This document shows positions 1 through 64,000 of a stretch of DNA of 64,000 bases, piece by piece. The stretch's first letter is position 1. Each line of letters starts with the position of its first letter. Source of the DNA: a phage; sequence record PZ445432.1. The stretch is one strand, 5' to 3'. The notes beneath the pieces are model-generated. The model was not told the origin of the DNA and made no database searches. It was given only the letters and a program-made list of their open reading frames with translations. Made by a program: the position numbers and the translations under genes.

Positions 1-39
1 TTCTTGGCAACGTTTAATAAAGTCTTTTACATTAGTCAT

Positions 40-2865: not shown

Positions 2866-5827
2866 CTAGCTCTGACATTGCTTCTTCTGCCATAGCCTTC
2901 TCTTCCTCTGTCATGAATTTGAAAGGAATTGGCATACACTCGATTTTACAATAGGTTCTGTACCAGTCTACGATATTCTCCGTGTTCATATCTTTACCAA
3001 TACCCATCATACCAAGATACATTCTAGCATATTTTGGGTTAGCACTCTGGCCTGTTTTAAGGAAGAAATCCTTTTTCTTACCTTTTAGAGCTTCTATGAA
3101 TGGTTTAATGGTTACATTTGAACACTTCTTAATGTCTTCCCAGAACATCTCGTGCATCTTATGAAAGAATGCAGCTCGATCATTTGGTTTATCTTTGATA
3201 TATTGTTCAACATGCTCAACTGTTACATCTTTAATAGACTCAAGATGATAATAGCGAACAATAAGTAGTTTAGCTTCATACGCATCAGCATGACGTGGAG
3301 CACAATAATCCGGAGTTGAATGTAGAATAGCTTTGATTCGCTCTTCTGTGTACTCTTTACCAGCACCTTCAATAGTTCCCCAGCTTTCACTGAAAATATC
3401 AATAGTTGCACCCTGATCAAGCAAGTAATAACGTAAAGTACTAGTATAGTTCCTAGATTCCAGCTCCCTGCGACGTGCGTATAATTGCTGTGCTAACTCC
3501 AGCCAACCCTCATCAATGTTATACTGTTCAGAACCTGCGGAGAATCCACTCGTAGATTTATCAATAAAATAATAAATGTTCTGAGCGCCACGGTCGCGCC
3601 TGATTGCTTGGAAACGCATGTTTGGCGCTTGATTACTGGTTCTAGTAATAACAAATACGTTATCAAAATAGTTGAAGTCAACTCCACTCGTTACGGATGG
3701 ACTACATAATAAGCAATCAATTTGTTGATCAATTAGCTCATTAGTTGTGTAATCCAGAATACGTCTAATATCCACATCTGATGTGGAGTTTGAGTGGATT
3801 TCCTTAACTAACGCACCAGTATTACGACGTAGTGCCATGCCCTTCTCATTCAGCTCATCAGGGCCACAATCAGATACTAGAATAGATTTCTCACCCATCT
3901 CTAGAGAAGTCTGAAGTGCAACCCAAATACTGGATTCATCGGGGAACTCATAAGCGTGAGCTTTTGACAGCATTTTACGGTGATGATTATAAAATGCTAC
4001 TGGTTTATCGAACTCAATCAAAGAACCATATGCTTCAATTGTTTCAGCACTAATATCACCATCGGATAGTATAATGATTTTTGCAGTTGCAAGAATATCA
4101 CGAAGAACCTGAATACACTCGCGACGTTGCTTAACAACTGGGGCGAATAATAGGTCATTCATTACTGCATCACATTCATCGATAAAGATTGCATCAATTT
4201 GACCAATAAAACTCTTAAACTTATGTAAAGAGTGGATAGTTGTGGACATACGGTCAATAGCACCACGCTTAAAATTAAGCATATCTACAGACTTATCATA
4301 TTGTCCTGCACTAAATTTCTTGGCATTTGAAGACACCAGTGCCCTAGTATTGGTAATTGCTAAGAAATTACCTTTAATAACTCCTGAATCTAACCAACGC
4401 ACAACTGCCGTGGTTTTACCTGTACCTAGACTTGCTTTTACAAAAGTCATATAACCTTCTGGTGGTACAGTGTTTAATTTCAAGAAGTTATCAGTTTCTA
4501 GAGAATTAGTTTCTAATTTTTTAAGTGGAACACCTTTTAATACTTCTGGGATCTCACGCTTAGAGTTATTAACAAAGGCTTTTAATGCCTGTTTTCGACC
4601 GTTATTAAAATAATCTTGAATATTACGACTATTATCTTTAGTTGCAATATACTCAGATAAAGCTGGGCGGATCTCCTTCTCTAGCCAACCAAAATCTACA
4701 CCATCCTCTAACGCTCGGTGATATAGCTTTGGAATAATACGTAGATATACACCATCCTCAGCCTCTTCTAACTCGCTAATGGTTTCTTCTACTTTATCAG
4801 AAGCAATCTTTTTGCCTTTAATTTGATCGAGTAAAGAGTAGAATTCCTCTTTAAACTCCCCTCTAGTTGTTTCATAGTCAACCAGATTATTAGGTAAATT
4901 TACTTTAGAACCCTTAACAAATACCAGACGTGAAGCACCCTCCGCTTTAAACGGATCAACTATACCATCAGTAAATAAAGGATCTGCAAAGTAATGGAGC
5001 TGTACGGAAGAGTAATAAGCTAAGTCGGCAATATCAAAGCCATACTTTTGTCTACTACTTTCATTGATAGATGTAAATAAGAACTTGATCTGACCCTGTG
5101 TAACTTTAACATTAGATTCTAGTATTAAGTGCATTCGGATACCTGGTTTTAGTCCAGCCGAAGACGATGCATGAGCAATAAACCCTGCATCAAGAGGAAA
5201 CATATCCTCACTAATACTATTCAACATTCTAATAATATGACGCGCCATGCCAACAAGATCAAACTTGTTACAACCTCCTGTATCTACAATACCATCCACG
5301 TCCATTGCAATTATATGACTTGGGTTAGATACATTAAAGTTGTCCTTCTTACGCCGCACATTATTTTTAGGTGCAAGACATCGACCTCGTACCGCAACGA
5401 TATGGGGGTCAGACGTTAAACGTCTCATAAGAGGGAGCATTTCTACTAGGGTTTGAGGATCAACTTCATCAATTACATCAAACTTGAAGGGCATTGAAGC
5501 TGGTTTACCTTCAGGATGCTTTGAGGAAAATCTTTTAGCAAAAAGATAATCTTCTGCTTTAACTTCTCGCCAATTGCCCGTGGCTAAATCGCGATGAAAT
5601 CCTGCATGACCTTGTAGGATTGAGAACACAACAATACTCCTGTGTTGGAAATGAAATAAGTTTTCTTTAGGACTATTCAGAAAGAATAGAACAACTGTTA
5701 CTGTCAATTTCTCAACAATTAATCGCAAATACTGAAGTGGGGTGGCAACTTCCACTTTCACGCTGCGCTGCTGCCTCATTATACCGCACAAATCCTTGAG
5801 GATGGCCGCTAAGCCGGATTTGCTCAC
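2840..5827 (-). CDS. putative SF2 helicase / replication origin-binding-like ATPase
   Basis: Walker A LGTGKTT, DExD-like IFIDECD, motif VI-like QAIRRDRG; N-terminal ~110 aa look non-protein-like, true start may be the internal ATG at 5494. Confidence 0.65.
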   Translation of the reverse strand: MSKSGLAAILKDLCGIMRQQRSVKVEVATPLQYLRLIVEKLTVTVVLFFLNSPKENLFHFQHRSIVVFSILQGHAGFHRDLATGNWREVKAEDYLFAKRFSSKHPEGKPASMPFKFDVIDEVDPQTLVEMLPLMRRLTSDPHIVAVRGRCLAPKNNVRRKKDNFNVSNPSHIIAMDVDGIVDTGGCNKFDLVGMARHIIRMLNSISEDMFPLDAGFIAHASSSAGLKPGIRMHLILESNVKVTQGQIKFLFTSINESSRQKYGFDIADLAYYSSVQLHYFADPLFTDGIVDPFKAEGASRLVFVKGSKVNLPNNLVDYETTRGEFKEEFYSLLDQIKGKKIASDKVEETISELEEAEDGVYLRIIPKLYHRALEDGVDFGWLEKEIRPALSEYIATKDNSRNIQDYFNNGRKQALKAFVNNSKREIPEVLKGVPLKKLETNSLETDNFLKLNTVPPEGYMTFVKASLGTGKTTAVVRWLDSGVIKGNFLAITNTRALVSSNAKKFSAGQYDKSVDMLNFKRGAIDRMSTTIHSLHKFKSFIGQIDAIFIDECDAVMNDLLFAPVVKQRRECIQVLRDILATAKIIILSDGDISAETIEAYGSLIEFDKPVAFYNHHRKMLSKAHAYEFPDESSIWVALQTSLEMGEKSILVSDCGPDELNEKGMALRRNTGALVKEIHSNSTSDVDIRRILDYTTNELIDQQIDCLLCSPSVTSGVDFNYFDNVFVITRTSNQAPNMRFQAIRRDRGAQNIYYFIDKSTSGFSAGSEQYNIDEGWLELAQQLYARRRELESRNYTSTLRYYLLDQGATIDIFSESWGTIEGAGKEYTEERIKAILHSTPDYCAPRHADAYEAKLLIVRYYHLESIKDVTVEHVEQYIKDKPNDRAAFFHKMHEMFWEDIKKCSNVTIKPFIEALKGKKKDFFLKTGQSANPKYARMYLGMMGIGKDMNTENIVDWYRTYCKIECMPIPFKFMTEEEKAMAEEAMSELGARNDSEE

Positions 5828-6330
5828 CTAATGCTTCATATACTAGCTCATACTAGATGCAATATAACTTACAGAATCACGTCTCGGTAGTTTTTCACTC
5901 CTCCCATCTCACTTCACAACCACCTCATACTAGGTTGCTTCGAGGCCTTACCAGGGTTCCTATGGGACGCAGATCGCTAAGTATTCTATTAACTATTTGT
6001 TTAAAAACTAACACGTAACAGTTAAAACAACCCTTAATGGGGCAGCCTAACTGTTCCGTATCGCGGATTGTAAACAAGAAAAAACTTTTTCGTAAAGCTC
6101 TAGCAACGTACCTTATGCAGCTATTTACGGGTCATCGATTCCTCTCGCCGTAAATCCATTGTCAGCTTCACTAAGAAAAATTAGCAAAATCAATTTTTAC
6201 TAATGTCTCTCAATTCAATATAAATATTATAGCAAGATTTTGAGCATCATGCAAGTAAATTTTTAAGGAGAATGCTATCAGTGTCTTTGAGCACAGTGAA
6301 AACCGAGCCAAAATGACTCGGTTATGTGGA

Positions 6331-6525
6331 TTAGACACTTAAAATACTTCTAATCTCTTCTATATACTTATCTACTTTTTTAGCATCTATTTTACTTAGT
6401 TTTCCTATATCAAAATCAGGATCAGTCAAATATCTTGCCATAAATTTTACTTGTTTAGCTGAAAGTTGACCCTTATTCCACTTTTTAATTTTACCATAAC
6501 ATACCCAATATTCTTTATTCATCAT
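6331..6525 (-). CDS. hypothetical protein
   Basis: ORF from track. Confidence 0.4.
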   Translation of the reverse strand: MMNKEYWVCYGKIKKWNKGQLSAKQVKFMARYLTDPDFDIGKLSKIDAKKVDKYIEEIRSILSV

Positions 6526-6907
6526 TTAGTCCCGAAACATAAATCCCAACACGGTTTAATTGTTCTTTGGCTTCTTTGAGAATATCTGGAGTGTACTCCC
6601 AAATATCATCTTCCACCTGTAAAAGATGGGGCGAACAACCGTCATCGGGCACACGACATATGGCCAAACCACGTGGATGGAACAAAGAGAAATTTAGTGC
6701 AACAATTAAACCCATAGCAGACAACTCATTCCAATCCAATTCCCATTCCCTAGCGTAGCCTGATAGGAAAACACCAATACAGGGATCGTCTATTTGCTGC
6801 TCCGGAAAAGTAAAGGAGGCTTGTCTTACCCCCAACCAACGTTGTAGCAGCTTCTCCGCACGCTTCACCAAACTAGGATCAATCTGACGCCAATATACTT
6901 GTTCCAT
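6515..6907 (-). CDS. hypothetical protein (paralog of 6917-7345)
   Basis: shares CIGVFL...W.EL.AMGL..ALN..LF.P block with the adjacent ORF. Confidence 0.5.
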   Translation of the reverse strand: MEQVYWRQIDPSLVKRAEKLLQRWLGVRQASFTFPEQQIDDPCIGVFLSGYAREWELDWNELSAMGLIVALNFSLFHPRGLAICRVPDDGCSPHLLQVEDDIWEYTPDILKEAKEQLNRVGIYVSGLNDE

Positions 6908-6916
6908 TGTGCCACC

Positions 6917-7345
6917 TTAGGCAGTTAAACCAGGAATTTGATAACCAAAACGACGAAGTTTCTGGATACCATCATTTACTTCTTCCGGTGAGTAAGACCA
7001 ACCGTAATGTTCATCAACTTGAAAGCCAGGAGATTCACTGGTTTTATAGTTAACAACAATACGGTGTTTATTGGGCATAAATAGCTTATAGTTTAATGCA
7101 AAAACCAACCCCATTTCATCCAGCTCTTTCCAGCCGACAATCTCTTCCAGACCATCCTCTACCTGCACAACTAGACCAATACACGGGGCCTCATCAATAT
7201 CATCTTTAAAAGCAAAGGAGATTTCATTATTTTCACACCATATTTTCAAGGAGTTAATAGTCTCATTATACAGGCTAGCTGGGAGAGTACGCCAGAAGTT
7301 AACCAAAATTGGATTAGCTTCTTTAGAGAATACATTATTGAACAT
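6917..7345 (-). CDS. hypothetical protein (paralog of 6515-6907)
   Basis: CIGLVVQ...WKELDEMGLVFALNYKLFMP similar to neighbour. Confidence 0.5.
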   Translation of the reverse strand: MFNNVFSKEANPILVNFWRTLPASLYNETINSLKIWCENNEISFAFKDDIDEAPCIGLVVQVEDGLEEIVGWKELDEMGLVFALNYKLFMPNKHRIVVNYKTSESPGFQVDEHYGWSYSPEEVNDGIQKLRRFGYQIPGLTA

Positions 7346-7347
7346 AT

Positions 7348-7854
7348 TTACACCTTAAGTTGTTGTAGGGCTTTACACATTTCAAGATCTGGACTAAATT
7401 CTAGCATATAGCTAACAGCCATTAAATCTTGAAGGTTTATTCCAGTTCTACCGTTGACTATAACCGTTGGATACTGGTACATCATAGCACCAGCGTCATC
7501 CAGCACACACCAATGTTTGAGCTTATGCTTTTCAACGAAGCGAAGAACAGAATTACCCCTAGATAGCCCACCACCAGTAAAATCCGTTGTACCAAGAAAA
7601 CGATCAATAAGATCTAATCTGGTCATAATCTGAACGTTCTCCATCTCATTCCTGACAGAGAACCATGAAGATACCCCAACAATCATTATTGGAGAAGGAC
7701 GAATAAAGTCCTGAAAAGCCTTGAGAAGCGGCTTAAAAACCCAGTCACTTCCAAAGAAAATCTTTTCATCATCAGGTGCATGATGGTGGGAGATGCTCGA
7801 ATTAAGCACCCCATCGATGTCTAGAAAAATAATTGGAGTATTACTTATTTCCAT
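7348..7854 (-). CDS. HAD-superfamily phosphatase-like protein
   Basis: N-terminal FLDIDGVL motif (DxDG nucleophile motif of HAD hydrolases). Confidence 0.55.
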   Translation of the reverse strand: MEISNTPIIFLDIDGVLNSSISHHHAPDDEKIFFGSDWVFKPLLKAFQDFIRPSPIMIVGVSSWFSVRNEMENVQIMTRLDLIDRFLGTTDFTGGGLSRGNSVLRFVEKHKLKHWCVLDDAGAMMYQYPTVIVNGRTGINLQDLMAVSYMLEFSPDLEMCKALQQLKV

Positions 7855-8023
7855 TTCTGTTCCTTTCTAAGAACGTATCATACTCAACCGTATCAACATA
7901 TATGACACCATAGTCATCGGATTTATAGTCCATTTCCCATAGCTCACATCGATAGCACCAACTACCATCCGCCCATACAAATATATCATCGGGATGTGTA
8001 TACACAGATTTAACTATGGACAT
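7841..8023 (-). CDS. hypothetical protein
   Basis: ORF from track. Confidence 0.35.
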   Translation of the reverse strand: MSIVKSVYTHPDDIFVWADGSWCYRCELWEMDYKSDDYGVIYVDTVEYDTFLERNRNGNK

Positions 8024-8838
8024 ATTTGTTTTCCCGGCATATAAGGTCTACCCTCTAGATGAGCTTCTACACGAGCAATAAAACCAGGATCACTGAAAGC
8101 ATCTACTGCACCTTTACTCCAGTAAGGAATACCACGATCTTCCAGTTGGTACATATCACTACGAGTCATACCTTGATAGCCTGGTTTCGACGCTAGGGCA
8201 CTATCATAGTAGTTAACTACCATAAGTTTCGCAGCAGTCCGATTAAGAACAGGGAATAGTTCCCAGTAGAAGTTAATTACTTGGTTAGAGCAACCAACTA
8301 CAACGATCATATCTTGACTGGTAATACCATCAAAAATATTGTACATTTCTGCGTACGCTGGAGCATGCTCACCAAAAAAGATTACATTAGGTTTAACCCA
8401 TTTATAATCATCTGGGTCAATAGAGTTATACCCAACATCAATAACCCGTTTATTACTACTATTGTAGCTATCAGCTACAACAACCTCTTTTAAATATCCG
8501 TGAATGTGCAGAATATCACTATGTGGAACGCCAGCACGCTCAATAAGGTCATCAACGTTGGTAGTCAAGTTTACTACTTGACCCGGATATTTCTTATACC
8601 ATTCACCAATACGCAAGTGTGCAAGATTAGGTTCAACAGTTTCTAACTCTTCACGCCGCTTGTTGTAAAACATATGGGTTTTATGATAAAAGTTACCACG
8701 AAAGGCGTGAATATTACATACTTCTTCTAGATCATAATCATCCCACAGTGCTTTACCACTAGCAGTATCGGTACGAAAAGCTCGTACACCACTTTCAACG
8801 CTCAAACCTGCACCGCTAATAATAATTAATCTACGCAC
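8014..8838 (-). CDS. Sir2-family NAD-dependent deacetylase-like protein
   Basis: GAGLSVESGVRAFR and TTNVDDL motifs characteristic of sirtuins. Confidence 0.7.
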   Translation of the reverse strand: MRRLIIISGAGLSVESGVRAFRTDTASGKALWDDYDLEEVCNIHAFRGNFYHKTHMFYNKRREELETVEPNLAHLRIGEWYKKYPGQVVNLTTNVDDLIERAGVPHSDILHIHGYLKEVVVADSYNSSNKRVIDVGYNSIDPDDYKWVKPNVIFFGEHAPAYAEMYNIFDGITSQDMIVVVGCSNQVINFYWELFPVLNRTAAKLMVVNYYDSALASKPGYQGMTRSDMYQLEDRGIPYWSKGAVDAFSDPGFIARVEAHLEGRPYMPGKQICP

Positions 8839-9032
8839 TATACGATTCCTCGCTTAAATCCTTCGATAATATTTCGGAGTAAAATTGCTTCCTCCGGGCG
8901 TACCTTCTCTTGCTTAATAAGCATATCCAATCCAGCAATACAACTAGTTACACCAGCATTATAACCAGAGTTCCATTGCTCAATGAGCATGTTTTCTAGA
9001 TTACTTTTTAGATTCTGATTCAAGAAGTCCAT
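8838..9032 (-). CDS. hypothetical protein
   Basis: ORF from track. Confidence 0.4.
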   Translation of the reverse strand: MDFLNQNLKSNLENMLIEQWNSGYNAGVTSCIAGLDMLIKQEKVRPEEAILLRNIIEGFKRGIV

Positions 9033-9225
9033 AAAGTTTCTCCTCTAGTCCCATAATACGATTTTCATAAGAAGCACGCAACTTTTCAATTGCCAGCGCA
9101 CGCACTGTAACCTCATTAGAATTAATAGCTAACTGGGCCAGATCTTCTGTTTCCATACGTCCGTTGTAAATTAAGCGATATTTAAGGTGTTTCACATTCT
9201 TGGTCATTATTAAACTCCACTGCAA
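9001..9225 (-). CDS. hypothetical protein
   Basis: ORF from track. Confidence 0.4.
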   Translation of the reverse strand: MQWSLIMTKNVKHLKYRLIYNGRMETEDLAQLAINSNEVTVRALAIEKLRASYENRIMGLEEKLYGLLESESKK

Positions 9226-9580
9226 CTGTTTCTAGGTCTTCGTCAAAAAAACTAGAGTATGTATCTTTAAGATACTGTTTAATACTCCAAGTAATATCTT
9301 CGTATCCATCTGGACTACGTTGGTATACTTTTAACACTCTATTATACACAAATTCAAGATTACATTTTACTTCATCTCTGTCTTCATCAAACAAGCAATA
9401 TGGGTTATATGGCGATACATCTAGATTTGTTTCCACCCAATCACCAATAACGGTGGGGTATCCAGCACCATCTATATGAGAGTAATCACCTGTGGCAGCA
9501 AAGACAGCCTCAGCAATATCATCCACGCCCAGATGGAAATCACCACATGTAGATTCAACTATATAGGGCTTTAATTCCAT
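9182..9580 (-). CDS. hypothetical acidic protein
   Basis: ORF from track; conserved promoter copy upstream at 9603-9648. Confidence 0.5.
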   Translation of the reverse strand: MELKPYIVESTCGDFHLGVDDIAEAVFAATGDYSHIDGAGYPTVIGDWVETNLDVSPYNPYCLFDEDRDEVKCNLEFVYNRVLKVYQRSPDGYEDITWSIKQYLKDTYSSFFDEDLETVAVEFNNDQECETP

Positions 9581-9602
9581 ATCTTTCTCCTCTCAAATTT
9601 AT

Positions 9603-9648
9603 AAATCTATTATACATAAATTTTTAGCTGAAAGCAAATAAAATAAAA
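9603..9648 (-). promoter_or_regulatory. conserved early sigma70 promoter
   Basis: minus strand: tatttgctttcagc ... tatgtataatagat. Confidence 0.5.
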
Positions 9649-9679
9649 GCCAGGTCGACTAGCAACCCGGCTGATTAGC

Positions 9680-11506
9680 TTACTTAAGATTTAAGTGTTT
9701 TACTCTACCAAGAACTTCTTTTTGTTTCCCAGAATTGAAAGGCCTACTGCTAGGGGATCCCAAGTACCCGCAAACCCTACGTGTAACCTCTATTTCTTCA
9801 GACCCACAACTCGGACATACAAACCCACGTTCAGAGGCAACAGATTCACCCATATACCCACAGTTGAAGCACTCATCAATTGGTATATTAACACCAATAT
9901 AATGGCTACATTCTAGCCCCTTATCCACCACATACTCAAGAGCTTTGTGGAACTTTTTCATTTGAGGTAGTTCCACAAATGATATATTACCACCATTAGC
10001 TATTTTGGTAAAATGAGCCTCGTACTCAAATTTAGTATCTGGGGCTACCTTCTCTCTTACGTCCAAATGGTGACTATTAGTGAGATAGCCTTTATCTGTT
10101 AGCCAAGAATACTCTGGGAATCTACGTTCTAGTAATTTATTAAAACGATTACATAGAGACTCACTAGGAGTAGCGTATAAGCTAAATCCAAGATTAGTCT
10201 CATTAGCTTTAACTTCGCAACGATTTTTTAGGTGAGTAAGAACTTCTTCTGTAAATTCAATACAATCCCTATGGGTTTGTGGTAGACCAAACATTATTTG
10301 GCACATCTCATAGACCCCAATGTATCCAAGAGATACAGAAGATCTACCCTCAAAAATAGGCCATACATACTCTTCCCCATCTAAACGCACACCAAAACCA
10401 CCGTGCATATAAAGAATAGGGGCTTGTTTAGCCTTAACTTTCTTCAGTCTGTTTAAGAAGAAGTCATGCGCTTCAAAAGCCTCATCCACATATTTGTCTA
10501 GAATATCCCAGAAATCTTCAAAAACCCCATCTGCCTCAGCAGCAACCATAGGTAGATTAATAGACACTACACCTAAATTATTGCGCCCTGCAATTTCTCC
10601 GGAGGGGATAGCAGATAAAAAGCTACGACAACCCATAGGTGCTTTAAAATCACCAGTAACAGCTACAACTTTCTCATAGCTTAAATAGTCCGGGTACATA
10701 CGGGTAGCAGAACACTCAAGTGCTAGCTGTTTTATATCGTAGTTAGGATCGCCTGGATTTTTATTTAACCCTTCTTTAACTGAGAATACTAGTTTAGGGA
10801 AGATAGGGGTTGACTCAGCAGCACCTAAACCTTTAATACGGTTTTGGAGGATGGCTTTCTGAATCATCCTTTCCTCCCACTCCTGTCCTAGCCCAAAGCC
10901 AAGCGTAACAAAAGGAGTCTGTCCATTAGAGTTAAATAATGAATTAGTTTCATACTCTAGGGCTTGGAATGCGTCATAACACTCTTTTTCAGTGAGTTCA
11001 GTAGCATATACAGCAGCTTTCCTTTCATCCTTGAGCCAACGTAGACCACGACCCAGGTGCTTATCATAAGACTTTCTGACATAAGGGGCTAAAACCTCAT
11101 CGATACGATCAATAGAAGTGCCACCATACTGAGCACCAGATACTTGGGCAATAATCTGAGCAGTGATTGCACATGCAGTAGTTATGGATTTAGGAGTTTC
11201 AATATTTGCATTACCAATTTTAGTACCATTCTTCAGCATGCCACCAAGGTCTACTAAACAACAGTTAGTGTATCCCTGTGCCCTGTAATCCATATCATGG
11301 ATGTGTATTTTACCTAGATTATGGGAGTCTAATAGATGTTTAGGTAATTCTTGTGCTACTAAATACTTGTTGATTTCTCCAGCTAATAAGTCTCTTTGGG
11401 TATGGAACATCTCACTAGGCTTATTAGCATTATTATGTTGTAAGTCCTTATCAGCAGTTAGAGTGAGCAGGCCTTTGCAATTCTCAATTAATTCATTCTC
11501 TGTCAT
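9680..11506 (-). CDS. nrdD: anaerobic ribonucleoside-triphosphate reductase
   Basis: C-terminal glycyl-radical motif RRVCGYLG and CxxC...CPSC zinc site; 608 aa. Confidence 0.9.
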   Translation of the reverse strand: MTENELIENCKGLLTLTADKDLQHNNANKPSEMFHTQRDLLAGEINKYLVAQELPKHLLDSHNLGKIHIHDMDYRAQGYTNCCLVDLGGMLKNGTKIGNANIETPKSITTACAITAQIIAQVSGAQYGGTSIDRIDEVLAPYVRKSYDKHLGRGLRWLKDERKAAVYATELTEKECYDAFQALEYETNSLFNSNGQTPFVTLGFGLGQEWEERMIQKAILQNRIKGLGAAESTPIFPKLVFSVKEGLNKNPGDPNYDIKQLALECSATRMYPDYLSYEKVVAVTGDFKAPMGCRSFLSAIPSGEIAGRNNLGVVSINLPMVAAEADGVFEDFWDILDKYVDEAFEAHDFFLNRLKKVKAKQAPILYMHGGFGVRLDGEEYVWPIFEGRSSVSLGYIGVYEMCQIMFGLPQTHRDCIEFTEEVLTHLKNRCEVKANETNLGFSLYATPSESLCNRFNKLLERRFPEYSWLTDKGYLTNSHHLDVREKVAPDTKFEYEAHFTKIANGGNISFVELPQMKKFHKALEYVVDKGLECSHYIGVNIPIDECFNCGYMGESVASERGFVCPSCGSEEIEVTRRVCGYLGSPSSRPFNSGKQKEVLGRVKHLNLK

Positions 11507-26102: not shown

Positions 26103-27050
26103 ATGTTTAATACTAAAAATATGAAAGAACTGACTTCTGAGCAAAAAGTAATTCGCACTATTAAACGTTGGGGTATTGGTTCTGTAGTTGGTTTAGCAGG
26201 TTTAATCCTAGCTTTTAATTCATATACTATTGTTTCTGATGGTACAGTTAAAACCCAAACATTTCTGGGTAAAGTAGATCCTAACCCAGTATTACCTGGT
26301 TTCCATCTTGTAAACCCATTTGCATCTTTCGATACTTTTAGTACAAAAGATATTGCTGTAAAATTAGATAAACTTCAGGTTCCTAGCCAGGATAAGTTTA
26401 AATCCACTGTTGACCTGACTGTTATGTTGCAGTTTGATGGTTCTAAGGCACCGATCAACCGTATTAATGCAGGTACTCAGGATCAGGCGTTAGACAAATA
26501 TGTTACTGAAAAATTACTGTCTACCATCCGTGAGTTTGGTAAGTCTGTACCTAAAGCACAAGATTTGTTTGATGCTAAAATTCAAGCACAATTACAAACT
26601 GCAATTCAACAGGAAGTTGAAGAGTATGCACGCCCTTATGGTTACACAGTTAAGCAAGTGTTCCTTCAGGATATTACATTGCCACCGGTAATTATGGAAC
26701 AGGTACAGAATACCAAAGTTCGTGAAGAACAAGTTAATGCTGCGAAAGCTGAATTGGCTCGTGTTGAACAAGAAGCACAGCAGAAGGTTAAACAAGCAGA
26801 AGCAGATCGTGAAGCTCGTAACAACCAAGCTATTGCAAACGAACGTGATGCAGATGCTAAACTGTATGCAGCTAAGAAAGAAGCCGAAGCTAACGCCGCT
26901 CTGCAACGTACTATTACTCCTGAGATGATTCGCTGGAAACAACTAGAAGTTGAAATGACTCGTGCTCAGAAGTATCAAGGTGGTGTGCCTCAGACTGTAG
27001 TAGGTACTGGTTACGATGGTCAAATGATCATGGATATGCGTAACAAGTAA
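26103..27050 (+). CDS. SPFH (band-7 / HflK/C-like) domain membrane protein
   Basis: N-terminal TM segment, SPFH-like core, C-terminal coiled-coil QEAQQKVKQAEADREARN. Confidence 0.65.
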   Translation: MFNTKNMKELTSEQKVIRTIKRWGIGSVVGLAGLILAFNSYTIVSDGTVKTQTFLGKVDPNPVLPGFHLVNPFASFDTFSTKDIAVKLDKLQVPSQDKFKSTVDLTVMLQFDGSKAPINRINAGTQDQALDKYVTEKLLSTIREFGKSVPKAQDLFDAKIQAQLQTAIQQEVEEYARPYGYTVKQVFLQDITLPPVIMEQVQNTKVREEQVNAAKAELARVEQEAQQKVKQAEADREARNNQAIANERDADAKLYAAKKEAEANAALQRTITPEMIRWKQLEVEMTRAQKYQGGVPQTVVGTGYDGQMIMDMRNK

Positions 27051-27337: not shown

Positions 27338-27856
27338 ATGACTGTTGATGAACTAACAGAACATCTCTTATCTAGAGGGTTTGATACAGATAAGTATCAT
27401 TGCTGGTTAAGTCCGGAAGGATGGCTAACAGTCCCGTTGTATGACTTCTCTGGGATGTTGAGAGGCTATCAGACTTATAATCCTTCTGCTCCAAAAGGTC
27501 ATGGTAAGTGCCCCTTTGAAGCTAAATATTTTACTTATTCAACTACACAGTGTGTATGGGGATTAGAAACTCTCAATGGAGATGAAAAAGTAGTATTGAT
27601 TGCTGAATCTGTATTTAAGGCAGTTGCGTTACATAACGCTGGTTATCCAGCCCTGGCAATGTTGGGTTCTTCCCCCGGAAAAGCATTGTTAAAGCAATTG
27701 AAATTATTACCTTTTAAATTGGTAGCTGTCGGAGATAATGATCCTGCGGGTGAAAAATTTGCTAGAAAATTAAACGGCTTTGTTTCTCCTGTAGATGTAG
27801 ATGAGATGTCTACCGAAAACTTGAAAAATTTTCTTGCTATGAAGCTAAATTTCTAA
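27338..27856 (+). CDS. hypothetical protein
   Basis: ORF from track. Confidence 0.5.
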   Translation: MTVDELTEHLLSRGFDTDKYHCWLSPEGWLTVPLYDFSGMLRGYQTYNPSAPKGHGKCPFEAKYFTYSTTQCVWGLETLNGDEKVVLIAESVFKAVALHNAGYPALAMLGSSPGKALLKQLKLLPFKLVAVGDNDPAGEKFARKLNGFVSPVDVDEMSTENLKNFLAMKLNF

Positions 27857-28552: not shown

Positions 28553-28627
28553 TGGGGGTGTAATCGAATTGGCATAGGTACTGTACTTAAAATTCAGGTT
28601 TTGTGGGTTCGAATCCCAGCGAGGCGT
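28553..28627 (+). other. tRNA-like element (unresolved fold)
   Basis: gtgggttcgaatcccag T-arm; no canonical acceptor partner found by hand. Confidence 0.3.
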
Positions 28628-41032: not shown

Positions 41033-41884
41033 ATGAAAAAAGAATTTAATGTACATAAAACTCTAGTAGTGCCAGATGATGCCAACTTGTTTTTCGTTGG
41101 TGATATTCATGGGTGCAACGATTTGCTAGAAGATGCACTACAATTAGCTGGCTATAACGGCAAGAAAGATTGCGTTGTATGCGTAGGGGATTTAATTGAC
41201 CGAGGCACGCAGAACCTACAAGTTTTAGCCAAATTCCTGTATAATCCACGCTTTATCAGTGTCCGTGGTAATCATGACCAATTTATGATTGTGGGAGATT
41301 GGGCTAACTGGATGTATAACGGTGGTATGTGGGCTATGAATGAACTAGATGCAGATACCATTAAAAATATTGCCGAAGACATGGCTGAAAAAATGCCAGT
41401 ATTCCTAACTGTTAAACATCGTGGCAAGAAGTATGGTGTTGTTCACGGTGCGGTTCCCTACAGGCATAAAGGGGATAATAACATATCTAAAATCCCAAAT
41501 TGGGACACTCTTATTCTGGAGGCAGAGCAGGCCAAAGGGCTTGATTTAGCAGATATTATAGACGATGCTCTATGGGATAGGGATGTGATCCAAGATGTAT
41601 TTTCCCATATGTCTGAGGATGCTGACCACCCGTATTTTCAAAGATATGCTGGACTTCCAGAAAACTTAATTAATCACATTCCTAAGGTAGAAGGAGTAGA
41701 ATTCGTATTTCACGGGCATACTGGAGTTCCTTACCCAATATTATATAAGAACCGTGTCTATCTTGATACTGGCGGTGTTTTCAACGGGCAGTTGACGGTT
41801 GCGCAGGTTAATGATGAAACTGGCAAAATCACCACATTTACCACAGACAAAAATGATAGCTGCGGTGTACAGAGGGTTCTTTAA
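41033..41884 (+). CDS. Ser/Thr protein phosphatase (calcineurin-like metallophosphoesterase)
   Basis: GDIHG, GDLIDRG and GNHD motifs. Confidence 0.75.
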   Translation: MKKEFNVHKTLVVPDDANLFFVGDIHGCNDLLEDALQLAGYNGKKDCVVCVGDLIDRGTQNLQVLAKFLYNPRFISVRGNHDQFMIVGDWANWMYNGGMWAMNELDADTIKNIAEDMAEKMPVFLTVKHRGKKYGVVHGAVPYRHKGDNNISKIPNWDTLILEAEQAKGLDLADIIDDALWDRDVIQDVFSHMSEDADHPYFQRYAGLPENLINHIPKVEGVEFVFHGHTGVPYPILYKNRVYLDTGGVFNGQLTVAQVNDETGKITTFTTDKNDSCGVQRVL

Positions 41885-42171
41885 TGAATGATAGAATGAA
41901 AGAAGTACAAGAAGAGTTACGAGCAATGCGTATTGATGCCCTTCGTTGGAGGGCATTAGTTAATGCTTTCGTAAAAGGAGATACCGGAGTAATATATTCT
42001 GGAATAGCAGTCAATTTTTGTTTTAATTCTCCTGCTGAAATAGAGATAGAAACAAGGCTTACTACCTTCCTTAATGAGGTAGACCTTAAGGAAGGAGAGA
42101 CTCCCGAGGAGTTTAAAACTAGAGTATTAACTACCTGGGTTGATAATTTAATACAAAAAAGGAGTAAGTGA
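41884..42171 (+). CDS. hypothetical protein
   Basis: ORF from track. Confidence 0.45.
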   Translation: MNDRMKEVQEELRAMRIDALRWRALVNAFVKGDTGVIYSGIAVNFCFNSPAEIEIETRLTTFLNEVDLKEGETPEEFKTRVLTTWVDNLIQKRSK

Positions 42172-42761
42172 TGAGGGTTAAATTCTGGTCAGACTTGCAC
42201 TTAGACCACCCTGGAGCACTACGTTTCCGTCCGTGGTTTAAGAACATGAAAGAGCACGATGAGTATATTCTAGATACTTTGTCCAAGCATATTGGTAAAC
42301 GAACAAAACTTATTTTGCTAGGAGATATTGCAGTAGGTCGTGAAGGTCTGGCCAAATTAAAGTCGGTTATCCACAATGTCCCTAATCAACTCATTATGGG
42401 TAATCATGATGCGGAGCGTCAAGGACTGAGTATTAGGGACTTAGCGGAAGTTTATGACGATATTCAAGCTCTAGGCAAACAGACTGGAGGTGGCAAAAAG
42501 TTTTGGCTATCTCATTGCCCTTTGCACCCCAATGAGCTTCGGGGCAAATTAAATATTCACGGACACGTACATGCTACTTCTATACGTGACCCTCGTTACA
42601 TCAATGTCTCATTTGAAATGAGCAAAACTCCTATTCCTCTAGAAGATATTGTATCAGGTAAGTTTACTAGCTATGATAGAGTAGTTAATTGTACTACTGG
42701 CGAAGTATTACAAATAGGGGAAGATGTAGCTGCTGTATTACGTGGCGATATAAATGTCTAA
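42168..42761 (+). CDS. calcineurin-like metallophosphoesterase
   Basis: SDLHLD, GDIA and GNHD motifs. Confidence 0.65.
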   Translation: MMRVKFWSDLHLDHPGALRFRPWFKNMKEHDEYILDTLSKHIGKRTKLILLGDIAVGREGLAKLKSVIHNVPNQLIMGNHDAERQGLSIRDLAEVYDDIQALGKQTGGGKKFWLSHCPLHPNELRGKLNIHGHVHATSIRDPRYINVSFEMSKTPIPLEDIVSGKFTSYDRVVNCTTGEVLQIGEDVAAVLRGDINV

Positions 42762-42849
42762 GTATATAGCTGGGGCTATAATTAAACGAGTCATACAAGC
42801 AGTAGCAATACTTATAATCATTTGTATTGCTATTGGTACAGGACTAGGC

Positions 42850-42890
42850 ATTTTAATTAAAAGTTTTATTTGCTAAAATGCCTAAGTTTC
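42850..42890 (+). promoter_or_regulatory. conserved early sigma70 promoter
   Basis: aaaagttttatttgctaaaatg...ctgtataat. Confidence 0.55.
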
Positions 42891-42928
42891 TGTATAATTA
42901 CTTTATAAATTGATGAGAGGGAAACAAA

Positions 42929-43360
42929 ATGAACAAAGTAGATAAAGCTCTAGTTTTTGCAGCAGCAGATAAGTTTGAACAAGTTAAAGCTACTTTCCGA
43001 ACCCTGTTCCAGTCTTACGTTCAGGATAAGTCTAATCCTATTTCTGAACGCTTGATGGTTTGGGAGTGTCATGCTTGCAATGCCTTGCTAATTGCTGATT
43101 ACCGTAGTGATATAGATAAAGATCTTTGTGAAATCCTTATCCCCGAGGAAGCAGAACGTTATCAGTTAATCTCTTTTCAAGATTTAGCAGAACAGATCAT
43201 CCCTGATGATCTTTGGGACAAGTATTATGGTGATCCTGAAGACGAAGGAATGACTCCAGAAGCATGTATTGAACTGATCTGCAAAGATCATCCTGAAATT
43301 GCAGAAAAATTTGAGAAAGTTTTTGTTTCTGAGTTCTCCGGTGTTGTTAACGATTGGTAA
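42929..43360 (+). CDS. hypothetical protein
   Basis: ORF from track. Confidence 0.5.
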   Translation: MNKVDKALVFAAADKFEQVKATFRTLFQSYVQDKSNPISERLMVWECHACNALLIADYRSDIDKDLCEILIPEEAERYQLISFQDLAEQIIPDDLWDKYYGDPEDEGMTPEACIELICKDHPEIAEKFEKVFVSEFSGVVNDW

Positions 43361-63518: not shown

Positions 63519-64000
63519 ATGGCAAATGATGTATTAGTACCAGATCTTATGTCCCCTGAAGGGATGGATGTAATTGAAGCATATTTACAGTGTGGCAGCG
63601 ATGTGCCTTCTGCCGCACGTAGTCTTGGAATGTCTGAAATTGCTTTCCGAGATATTATGAATCGTAGCGAAGTTAAAAACTACTTAAATGATATTTTTAT
63701 GGAGAGTGGTTTCCGTAATAGAGATCGTTTATTTGGTGTTCTAGATGAAGTTATTAAGCGTAAACTAGAGGAACTGGAAGAAACTGGCATGGGTTCTGAC
63801 CAAGATATTATGGATATTCTCTGGAAAGCACATAAAATGAAAATGGAAGAAATGAAAATGATGGTAGAACTGGAGAAAGTGAAGGCAGCAGCCCGCACTC
63901 CAGCTAACCAGACCAACATCCAGAATAATATTATTGCTGGAGCTGGGGATCAAAACTACATGGACTTAATTACTTCCCTAGCTACTGGAGGTAAGAAGTA
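63519..64000 (+). CDS. hypothetical protein, partial (runs off window end; HTH-like N-terminus)
   Basis: GGAGG RBS; [20 protein letters not shown]-like segment; 3' end truncated. Confidence 0.45.

Follow-up and report, generated by a model that had tools for sequence, protein, structure and literature searches.

Within a 64,000-nucleotide stretch of phage DNA (sequence record PZ445432.1, the whole of which we call the window), the minus strand between positions 7348 and 8838 carries a Sir2-like gene (8014-8838, encoding 274 residues from a GTG start) and a gene for a HAD-type phosphatase (7348-7854, 168 residues). We found that the encoded sirtuin is a phage-borne, zinc-less offshoot of the class III sirtuins, being neither a defence-type NADase nor a CobB equivalog; judging by their conserved residues, both it and the HAD protein look catalytically intact. 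The model we favour, tentatively, is that the sirtuin carries out NAD-dependent processing of phosphorylated RNA ends. The association of Sir2 with HAD is confirmed and lies far beyond chance, and it is already known, both as an annotation (a Sir2-like gene has been annotated since the original T5 genome records) and as a published comparative-genomic hypothesis. The original prediction for this locus, which spoke of a Sir2-like NAD-dependent enzyme with an adjacent HAD phosphatase that might modulate host NAD+ or ADP-ribose metabolism or counter NAD-depleting defences, is only partly supported, and it missed the loss of the zinc site and the replacement of the glutamine of the QNxD motif by threonine.

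Over positions 6300-9700 the window has the same sequence (100% identity) as Escherichia phage HildyBeyeler, which is Bas33 of the BASEL collection (MZ501074.1) and a T5-like Tequintavirus; identity to phage T5 is 94%, and the corresponding locus of the T5-like phage SP15 shares 94.6% DNA identity with the window. In GenBank the Sir2-like gene is bas33_0055 ('Sir2-like protein'), with T5.102 as its T5 orthologue, and the HAD gene is bas33_0053 ('hypothetical protein'), with T5.105 as its T5 orthologue.

The sirtuin matched the Pfam SIR2 profile (PF02146) with an E-value of 1.5e-24 and 87.3 bits (cut-off 24) over profile positions 1-178 of 180, and the two Sir2 motifs that had been read from the letters alone were borne out on the minus strand: residues 9-22 are GAGLSVESGVRAFR and residues 92-98 are TTNVDDL. 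The nearest sequence in the PDB was E. coli CobB (1s5p, E-value 1.3e-17), followed by Sir2Af1/2 and SIRT5, and an AlphaFold2 (AF2) model built on 59 homologues (pLDDT 90) gave the same picture, its best Foldseek superposition being on CobB 1s5p (TM 0.71/0.85), then on Sir2Af1 and SIRT5, with a Foldseek probability of 1.00 to many sirtuin structures. Among those 59 homologues (56-85% identity) 47 alignment columns were invariant, every NAD-binding and catalytic residue among them (G9-A10-G11, S13, F21-R22, N94, D96, H113, S184, and N209), and the loss of catalytic residues that would have spoken against the Sir2 call was thus seen neither here nor in the 16 HAD homologues described below. We set the residue register with two PDB chains of engineered CobB, 6rxs (Y92A, I131L, V187Y) and 6rxm (A76G, I131C), from which C41, Y58, R61, T93, N94, V95, D96, H113, and V152 of the phage protein correspond to A76, Y92, R95, Q129, N130, I131, D132, H147, and V187 of CobB; all of these phage residues were likewise invariant. 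They include Y58 and R61, the class III Tyr-x-x-Arg dyad that recognises acidic acyl groups. In the FGE loop F154, F155, and E157 were also invariant, and G156 varied in a few homologues. Since the NAD-binding, catalytic, dyad, and pocket residues are all invariant, the sirtuin looks active, its catalytic machinery being under selection.

What sets the protein apart is its small domain and two positions that contact NAD. No cysteine is found in the 43 residues between H113 and G156, where zinc-bearing relatives have CxxC...CxxC, and so the zinc ribbon is gone; in addition, the Gln of QNxD is Thr (T93). Despite the missing cysteines, the AF2 model keeps the beta ribbon of the small domain at high confidence. 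In a set of 150 representatives at 50% identity, drawn from 1.8 billion proteins, the nearest sequences were zinc-less with T, S, or A at the Gln position, and the more distant ones had four cysteines and Q. T, S, or A stood at this position in 39 of the 53 zinc-less representatives, the other 14 having some other residue, compared with 13 zinc-bearing representatives with T, S, or A and 81 without (Fisher p = 4e-13). A further motif, GTS, is changed to G(S/C/A)S in the zinc-less clade, and is GCS in the window sirtuin. On this sequence evidence zinc loss and the Q-to-T change go together and define a clade that is all but confined to (large lytic) phages. The clade was present in 1,007 of 50,697 phage records, its carriers including T5-like phages, Vequintavirus, Mydovirus-like phages, jumbo phages, and KVP40-like vibriophages. 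A motif-based scan of cellular genomes from 185,579 species returned only five loci, the two closest of them in metagenome-assembled genomes, although by its nature such a scan does not prove absence elsewhere.

The absence of all four zinc-binding cysteines, together with the replaced Q of QNxD, could be taken as a sign of decay, the sirtuin being a remnant without catalytic activity that was kept as a binding or structural protein after its zinc site was lost. We find this hardly credible: apart from these positions, no catalytic or NAD-binding residue varies even in homologues of only about 50% identity, around 1,000 phage records contain the gene, the small domain is predicted with confidence although it lacks zinc, and the loss of zinc is common to the whole clade rather than sporadic.

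The analogy that had been drawn with bacterial Sir2 domains of NAD-depleting defence systems failed. At E-values of 0.01 or less, no PADLOC defence model matched the Sir2 protein or its four neighbours, and the nearest relatives are deacylases of the CobB/SIRT5 type; we therefore rejected a defence-type Sir2 NADase as a candidate. The sirtuin is moreover a single-domain protein in a phage early operon, with no linked sensor or partner (SLOG, HerA, pAgo, or DSR C-terminal domains). Nor is it a homolog of the KptA/Tpt1 family (PTS_2-RNA, with the ART fold), its Pfam match being to SIR2 only.

Its kinship with CobB, Sir2Af1/2, and SIRT5, in both sequence and structure, raises the main alternative, namely an ordinary class III deacylase of protein lysines (removing succinyl, malonyl, or acetyl groups), which would reset the acylation of host or phage proteins early in infection, e.g., that of nucleotide-metabolism or replication enzymes, with the HAD protein being separate and possibly a protein phosphatase. 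A search of NCBIfam gave seven matches, all to CobB-type deacylase models; the acyl-pocket positions used in engineering CobB are conserved (C41, Y58, V95, and V152 here), as are R61 and F155; and the FGE loop, invariant apart from G156, and the beta ribbon that is modelled confidently without cysteines agree with such an enzyme as well. Skliros et al. (2016; PMC5107563) argued for deacylation in the case of a Vibrio phage homologue. However, all seven NCBIfam matches were below cut-off, and far below it even for the best (NF001753, 101 vs 243 bits), the protein has lost a zinc site on which canonical sirtuins depend, and its host has a CobB of its own. In addition, because the Q-to-T and GTS-to-G(S/C/A)S changes lie at NAD-contacting positions and co-vary with the loss of zinc, they argue for a changed reaction or substrate. 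On balance we consider a conventional deacylase somewhat unlikely, and the gene neighbourhoods described below bear on it further.

The identification of a HAD-type phosphatase stood up equally well. The protein matched Pfam HAD_SAK_2 (PF18143, 'HAD domain in Swiss Army Knife RNA repair proteins') with an E-value of 1.2e-20 and 74.7 bits (cut-off 27.5), the match spanning 138 of the 139 profile positions. HAD motifs I-IV fall at D12 and D14, S62-S63, R99, and D119-D120 and are conserved in homologues down to 37% identity, with D12, D14, S63, R99, D119, and D120 invariant in the 16 homologues compared (37-95% identity); the enzyme therefore looks catalytically intact. Its model (pLDDT 94) has no cap domain, and as a capless HAD it is most like the MDP-1 and Scp1/Fcp1 phosphatases, which act on macromolecules. 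A distinctive feature is the motif TGGGxxRG. By phmmer no solved close relative was found in the PDB at an E-value of 1 or less, and all Foldseek matches had E-values of 6e-3 or more; among the top 120 matches to the HAD_SAK_2 profile we saw no informative domain fusions, all being single-domain proteins. The HAD protein of SP15 is 97.6% identical to that of the window. In many T5-like records, including that of T5.105 (L002, 3832-4338), the RefSeq/PHROG-based label of the HAD gene is 'Sir2 (NAD-dependent deacetylase)'. The label goes back to the 92-residue profile phrog_18062, which matches residues 77-168, the C-terminus of the HAD protein, for which Pfam gives HAD_SAK_2; it is a propagated mis-annotation.

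The sirtuin and HAD genes belong to the same operon but are not strictly adjacent: an open reading frame (ORF) of 60 residues (7841-8023) lies between them and overlaps both. The operon sits between nrdD and the primase/helicase genes, in surroundings given to replication and nucleotide metabolism (primase, nrdD, phoH, nrdAB, frd, and td), and in the T5 record the unit is bracketed by a promoter and a terminator, all of which fits the early-region placement that had been suggested for it.

To place the pair in a wider setting we used a panel of neighbour proteins to search 59 loci from IMG/VR and a number of others from GenBank. Sir2 together with HAD, the type 3 arrangement of Iyer et al. (2022), was present in the window and in 28 of the 59 IMG/VR loci, and the T5-like order of Sir2, small ORF, HAD, and two DUF7415 genes was kept even where Sir2 had diverged to 51% identity. 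Pantoea phage AAS21 and one Logan contig have the order HAD, small ORF, Sir2, and in Klebsiella T5-like phages Sir2 and DUF7415 were kept and HAD was not detected. In at least two further phage groups there are sirtuins of the same clade (48-63% identical, with the same invariant pocket), and here the neighbours are different. In Vequintavirus JeffSchatz and in the Mydovirus-like phage K54_rec3 and its relatives, Sir2 comes after genes for, in order, a metallophosphoesterase, a T4-type RNA ligase 1 (Rnl1), cREC, and a P-loop polynucleotide-kinase-like protein. Downstream of Sir2 there is a gene for an ATP-dependent DNA ligase, immediately next to it in K54_rec3 and three genes away in JeffSchatz; these clusters have a MazG-like gene as well. 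The genes of this RNA-repair cluster abut or overlap; in K54_rec3 all of them point the same way, and in JeffSchatz those for the kinase and phosphoesterase are oriented divergently. The type 2 neighbourhood (Rnl1, cREC, kinase, MazG, and metallophosphoesterase) was recovered from JeffSchatz, K54_rec3, and 11 IMG/VR loci. On a viral contig of 607 kb, Rnl1 lies 2.3 kb upstream of Sir2, and single contigs had the series NAMPT, Sir2, EndoVII, NrdD and the series Rnl1, arginase-family gene, small ORF, Sir2. The HAD_SAK_2 family also occurs near RNA ligases without any Sir2, at a distance of two genes from rnlA (Aeromonas phage PX29) and of 3 kb from an RNA_ligase gene (locus L110).

Linkage to genes of RNA end healing and sealing is the strongest contextual signal in the relatives. 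Phosphoesterases of three unrelated folds (HAD, cREC, and metallophosphoesterase) recur beside the sirtuin in different phage lineages, as one would expect of a pathway that handles phosphate or cyclic phosphate. A lysine deacylase would need none of the three, and it leaves unexplained why RNA ligase, kinase, and these phosphoesterases so repeatedly share an operon with the sirtuin; this non-homologous replacement is the main argument that we add here. The occurrence of HAD_SAK_2 near RNA ligases in PX29 and L110 also counts for RNA-end processing, as do the intact catalytic machinery of the sirtuin, the run from NadV to cREC in phage RaK2 that is described below, and the resemblance of the capless HAD protein to MDP-1 and Scp1/Fcp1, and the Y58/R61 dyad, being anion-binding, could hold a phosphate. 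The same hypothesis was reached independently by Iyer et al. (2022), which we count in its favour as well.

From this we infer a substrate, a chemistry, and a part for the HAD protein, as follows. An active NAD+-consuming transferase of class III (CobB/SIRT5-type) descent would act on phosphorylated nucleic-acid ends, specifically those of RNA, with NAD+ as the donor of an ADP-ribose group that is attached to a phosphate at a terminus or junction, for instance the 2'-phosphate of an RNA. In a second step the ribose 2''-OH, aided by His113, would attack and release ADP-ribose 1'',2''-cyclic phosphate, leaving a clean 2'-OH. Such a route would parallel the chemistry of KptA/Tpt1 on a different fold, the attack by the 2''-OH being a step that sirtuins already perform. 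The HAD protein would supply a phosphomonoesterase step, acting either on a 3'- or 2'-phosphate end of RNA or on the phosphorylated ADP-ribose by-product, and the two enzymes would be expressed from one early operon beside the genes of nucleotide metabolism.

Several points weigh against RNA-end processing. The sirtuin keeps the residues of the hydrophobic acyl-lysine tunnel of CobB (C41, V95, V152, and F155), and these suit the side chain of a lysine more than the end of an RNA. Using the JeffSchatz, K54_rec3, and PX29 proteins as tblastn queries against MZ501074.1 (1-105900) and the window, we obtained no match better than an E-value of 0.02 to an RNA ligase, a polynucleotide kinase, or a metallophosphoesterase in HildyBeyeler; as no RNA ligase or 5'-kinase was detected in this way, the T5-like set is incomplete for repair. 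A 3'-phosphatase would, moreover, oppose sealing by the host RtcB. None of the panel genes was found near Sir2 in 12 of the 59 IMG/VR loci (Phapecoctavirus-like contigs included), in phage WPEC4, or in Vibrio phage F86, and Pfam searches were uninformative for the genes next to Sir2 in Vibrio phages and Phapecoctavirus-like ones. The gene linkage in myoviruses may trace to one or a few ancestral arrangements, and the function of cREC is itself only predicted. Finally, in the full-text literature other than subscription-only papers we came across no experiments on T5.102 or T5.105, nor on a phage sirtuin of any other kind.

A second set of neighbourhoods leads toward NAD+ metabolism. In the Klebsiella jumbo phage RaK2 (L112, 1906-5588) the order is NMNAT-like cytidyltransferase, HNH, NadV, a hypothetical protein, Sir2, a Nudt16-like Nudix protein, and cREC, with PhoH further on; the run from NadV to cREC is compact and co-directional and constitutes the type 1 neighbourhood (Nudix and cREC). 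Genes for NAD+ synthesis, NAD+ consumption, and the processing of ADP-ribose or cyclic phosphate are thereby found side by side in this phage. NadV/NAMPT is located 0.6-1.6 kb upstream of Sir2 in RaK2 and in locus L101, and Mydovirus-like phages have Prs and NAMPT genes 2.5-8 kb from Sir2; in the group of JeffSchatz and K54_rec3 a Prs-like and NAMPT-like pair is 5-8 kb away on the other strand. In two phages lacking Sir2 at this site, Serratia phage ChuuTotoro (L040, 8001-11217) and phage ABPH49 (L108, 6001-9222), the HAD_SAK_2 gene overlaps a Prs-like gene by 4 nt and a NAPRTase-family gene follows, an arrangement which suggests that in some phages the substrate of this HAD family may be an intermediate of the phosphorylated ADP-ribose or NAD(P) kind. 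We take the Prs-like and NAPRTase pair to be the architecture described for the NARP1 pathway of NAD+ reconstitution.

These contexts lend some substance to an alternative in which both enzymes work on small molecules, the sirtuin being an NAD(P)+ glycohydrolase or base-exchange enzyme and the HAD protein dephosphorylating 2'-phospho-ADP-ribose, ADP-ribose-1''-phosphate, NADP+, or nicotinamide mononucleotide, with the effect of reshaping the host NAD+ pool or feeding reconstitution against NAD-depleting defences. The phage does depend on NAD+ for a two-subunit DNA ligase: the genes for its subunits A and B are located just past the left edge of the window (1-39, minus strand; 41134-43087 of MZ501074.1), on the same strand as the Sir2 operon, and since this ligase is NAD-dependent the phage has an essential NAD+-consuming enzyme besides the sirtuin. 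By the same token, hydrolysis of NAD+ offers no obvious gain to a phage with such a ligase. The sirtuin has no similarity to defence-type Sir2 NADases, and HADs without a cap more typically act on macromolecules. To our knowledge, the known NAD+-derived immune signals lack the nicotinamide-ribosyl bond that sirtuins cleave. No NAD-salvage gene is found in or near the T5-like operon: Prs-like and NAMPT-like genes (NARP-type NAD+ salvage) had no match in any T5-like locus, and a non-exhaustive look at ten of the larger unannotated ORFs of the window found no NARP3-like PnuC/NadR or other NAD-salvage genes, only DUF7566, HNH, and DUF7022, besides the SPFH and Toprim proteins described below. Co-occurrence with salvage genes (the NadV, Nudix, and Prs-NAPRTase contexts) is also to be expected for any consumer of NAD+, and Nudix and NadV as neighbours would suit a deacylase just as well, through the recycling of its products O-acyl-ADP-ribose and nicotinamide. 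We thus judge the small-molecule alternative to be improbable. The original prediction of a tie to NAD+ or ADP-ribose metabolism is plausible from the other phages, whereas a role in depleting NAD+ or in countering defences is unsupported.

Returning to RNA-end processing, a more far-reaching form of it can be put forward, one that we hold to be doubtful but worth stating: the zinc-less sirtuin would be the first nucleic-acid sirtuin, an RNA 2'-phosphotransferase or ADP-ribosylating RNA-end enzyme that arose from a class III deacylase by convergence with KptA/Tpt1, with its Tyr/Arg carboxylate site now serving to bind phosphate. Together with the HAD protein it would, in T5-like phages, restore clean 2',3'-OH ends on cleaved or trimmed tRNAs, the large tRNA set of the phage included, with the host CCA-adding enzyme or RtcB-independent routes finishing the task, and would thereby counter RNA-targeting defences. 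Removal or modification of RNA-end phosphates, if true, would amount to a new sirtuin activity and a new arm of phage RNA repair against tRNA-cleaving defences; if the protein is instead a deacylase, phages would be rewriting host protein acylation. Either way, it is a consumer of NAD+ in phages that depend on NAD+ (e.g., through the T5 ligase) and that often have NAD+ salvage genes, and this bears on NAD-depleting defences.

The operon itself consists of nine minus-strand ORFs arranged head to tail with overlaps or with gaps of no more than 9 nt, in the order three small ORFs (9580-8838), Sir2, the 60-residue ORF, HAD, two DUF7415 paralogues (7345-6515), and a 64-residue ORF (6525-6331). Upstream, a terminator scan placed a hairpin that ends nrdD at 9672-9648, and by eye we recognised a promoter with -35 TTGCTT (9637-9632), a 17-nt spacer, and a perfect -10 TATAAT (9614-9609); downstream, a terminator-like hairpin at 6323-6301, also found by eye, closes the operon, all three being on the minus strand. 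The T5 record has an annotated promoter and terminators at the equivalent positions. A promoter-like TATAAT comes after the closing hairpin.

The three small ORFs that open the operon (8838-9580, minus strand; bas33_0058, bas33_0057, and bas33_0056) encode 132, about 68, and 64 residues and belong to PHROGs 11748, 5236, and 5827, respectively. The product of the first (9182-9580, phrog_11748) is very acidic, and Pfam gives just a sub-threshold zinc-finger match for it. Because a homologue of this 132-residue ORF is located between HAD and Sir2 in Pantoea phage AAS21 (L037, 5506-5862), it may belong functionally with these two. The 60-residue ORF (bas33_0054, minus strand; phrog_5116, E-value 2e-29) is kept between Sir2 and HAD in most T5-like loci. 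The two DUF7415 proteins, both on the minus strand, are tandem paralogues with two repeats each: protein a (bas33_0052, T5.106; 6917-7345, 142 residues, Pfam DUF7415 E-value 6.6e-34) and protein b (bas33_0051, T5.107; 6515-6907, 130 residues, E-value 1.2e-31). Protein a was downstream of HAD in all 28 of the 28 IMG/VR T5-like loci that have HAD. The C-terminal half of protein b recurs in many T4-like phages of Klebsiella, Enterobacter, and Aeromonas, often beside nrdD, and in Aeromonas phage PX29 it comes directly after rnlA; DUF7415 is a widespread small phage domain that is often near nrdD, and its distribution is uninformative. The last ORF (6331-6525, minus strand, 64 residues) is absent from the GenBank annotation and overlaps the gene for protein b at its stop codon; in T5 there is nothing but a terminator and a promoter at this position. 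The 880-nt stretch from the operon to the primase gene (5630-6514) has no annotated feature.

Elsewhere the window is not collinear with MZ501074.1, as about 5.0 kb of the tRNA region of that record (about 71667-76685) is absent from the window. The two alignments that flank the junction share 21 nt (28598-28618), an overlap which suggests a short direct repeat at the junction. At its end the window continues (63519-64000) beyond the end of the record into the record's first 482 nt (terminase small subunit), and because it passes from the record's end into its start it comes from a permuted or circularised copy. Two plus-strand genes in the tRNA gene region that are annotated as hypothetical could be assigned to families, one as an SPFH/Band 7 domain protein (26103-27050, E-value 5.8e-19) and one as a small Toprim-like protein (27338-27856, E-value 2.2e-5).

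Phage homologues of Sir2/CobB that lack the zinc ligand, T5 among their carriers, were reported by Skliros et al. (2016; PMC5107563), who proposed deacetylation of host enzymes. Iyer, Burroughs, Anantharaman, and Aravind (2022; Viruses 14:1977; PMC9503650) described the SP15 sirtuin and its 'Swiss-army-knife'-like HAD as a type 3 neighbourhood and proposed that the sirtuin removes RNA 2'-phosphates in a KptA-like manner. Work on NARP3 and NAD+ reconstitution in T5-like phages does not involve the sirtuin (PMC13464706).

Among known systems, the defence Sir2 NADases (ThsA, DSR1/2, Sir2-HerA, and pAgo-Sir2) share with the window sirtuin membership of the Sir2 superfamily and the use of NAD+, and many of them also lack the zinc ribbon. 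They differ in that the window sirtuin has no PADLOC match and no sensor or partner domain, is much closer to deacylase-type sirtuins, and is carried by a virulent phage in an early metabolic operon. KptA/Tpt1, the proposed functional analogue, is likewise NAD+-dependent and likewise linked to RNA ligases; it ADP-ribosylates a phosphate oxygen, after which the ribose 2''-OH attacks, a second step that mirrors the sirtuin mechanism. Its fold, however, is that of the ADP-ribosyltransferase superfamily, compared with the Rossmann-type sirtuin, and there is no sequence similarity, so that the resemblance is one of mechanistic analogy only. For the phosphatase, the points of comparison are T4 polynucleotide kinase-phosphatase, with its C-terminal HAD domain, MDP-1, and Scp1, from which the window HAD differs in having no kinase domain and in its TGGGxxRG motif. 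CobB and SIRT5 have the same fold as the window sirtuin at about 24-30% identity, with GAGxS, FR, N-x-D, the catalytic His, the FGE loop, and the Tyr/Arg dyad in common, whereas the window sirtuin lacks the zinc cysteines, has Thr for the Gln of QNxD and GCS for GTS, extends by about 60 residues at its C-terminus, scores far below the NCBIfam CobB cut-offs, and is phage-carried with other gene neighbours. Closest of all is the phage sirtuin clade of Iyer et al. (2022), which is the same thing as the window locus and whose types 1 and 2 we found again; to it we add the operon anatomy, the lack of ligase and kinase in T5-like phages, and a clade signature in which loss of zinc, Q-to-T, and the GTS change go with a retained dyad and acyl pocket.

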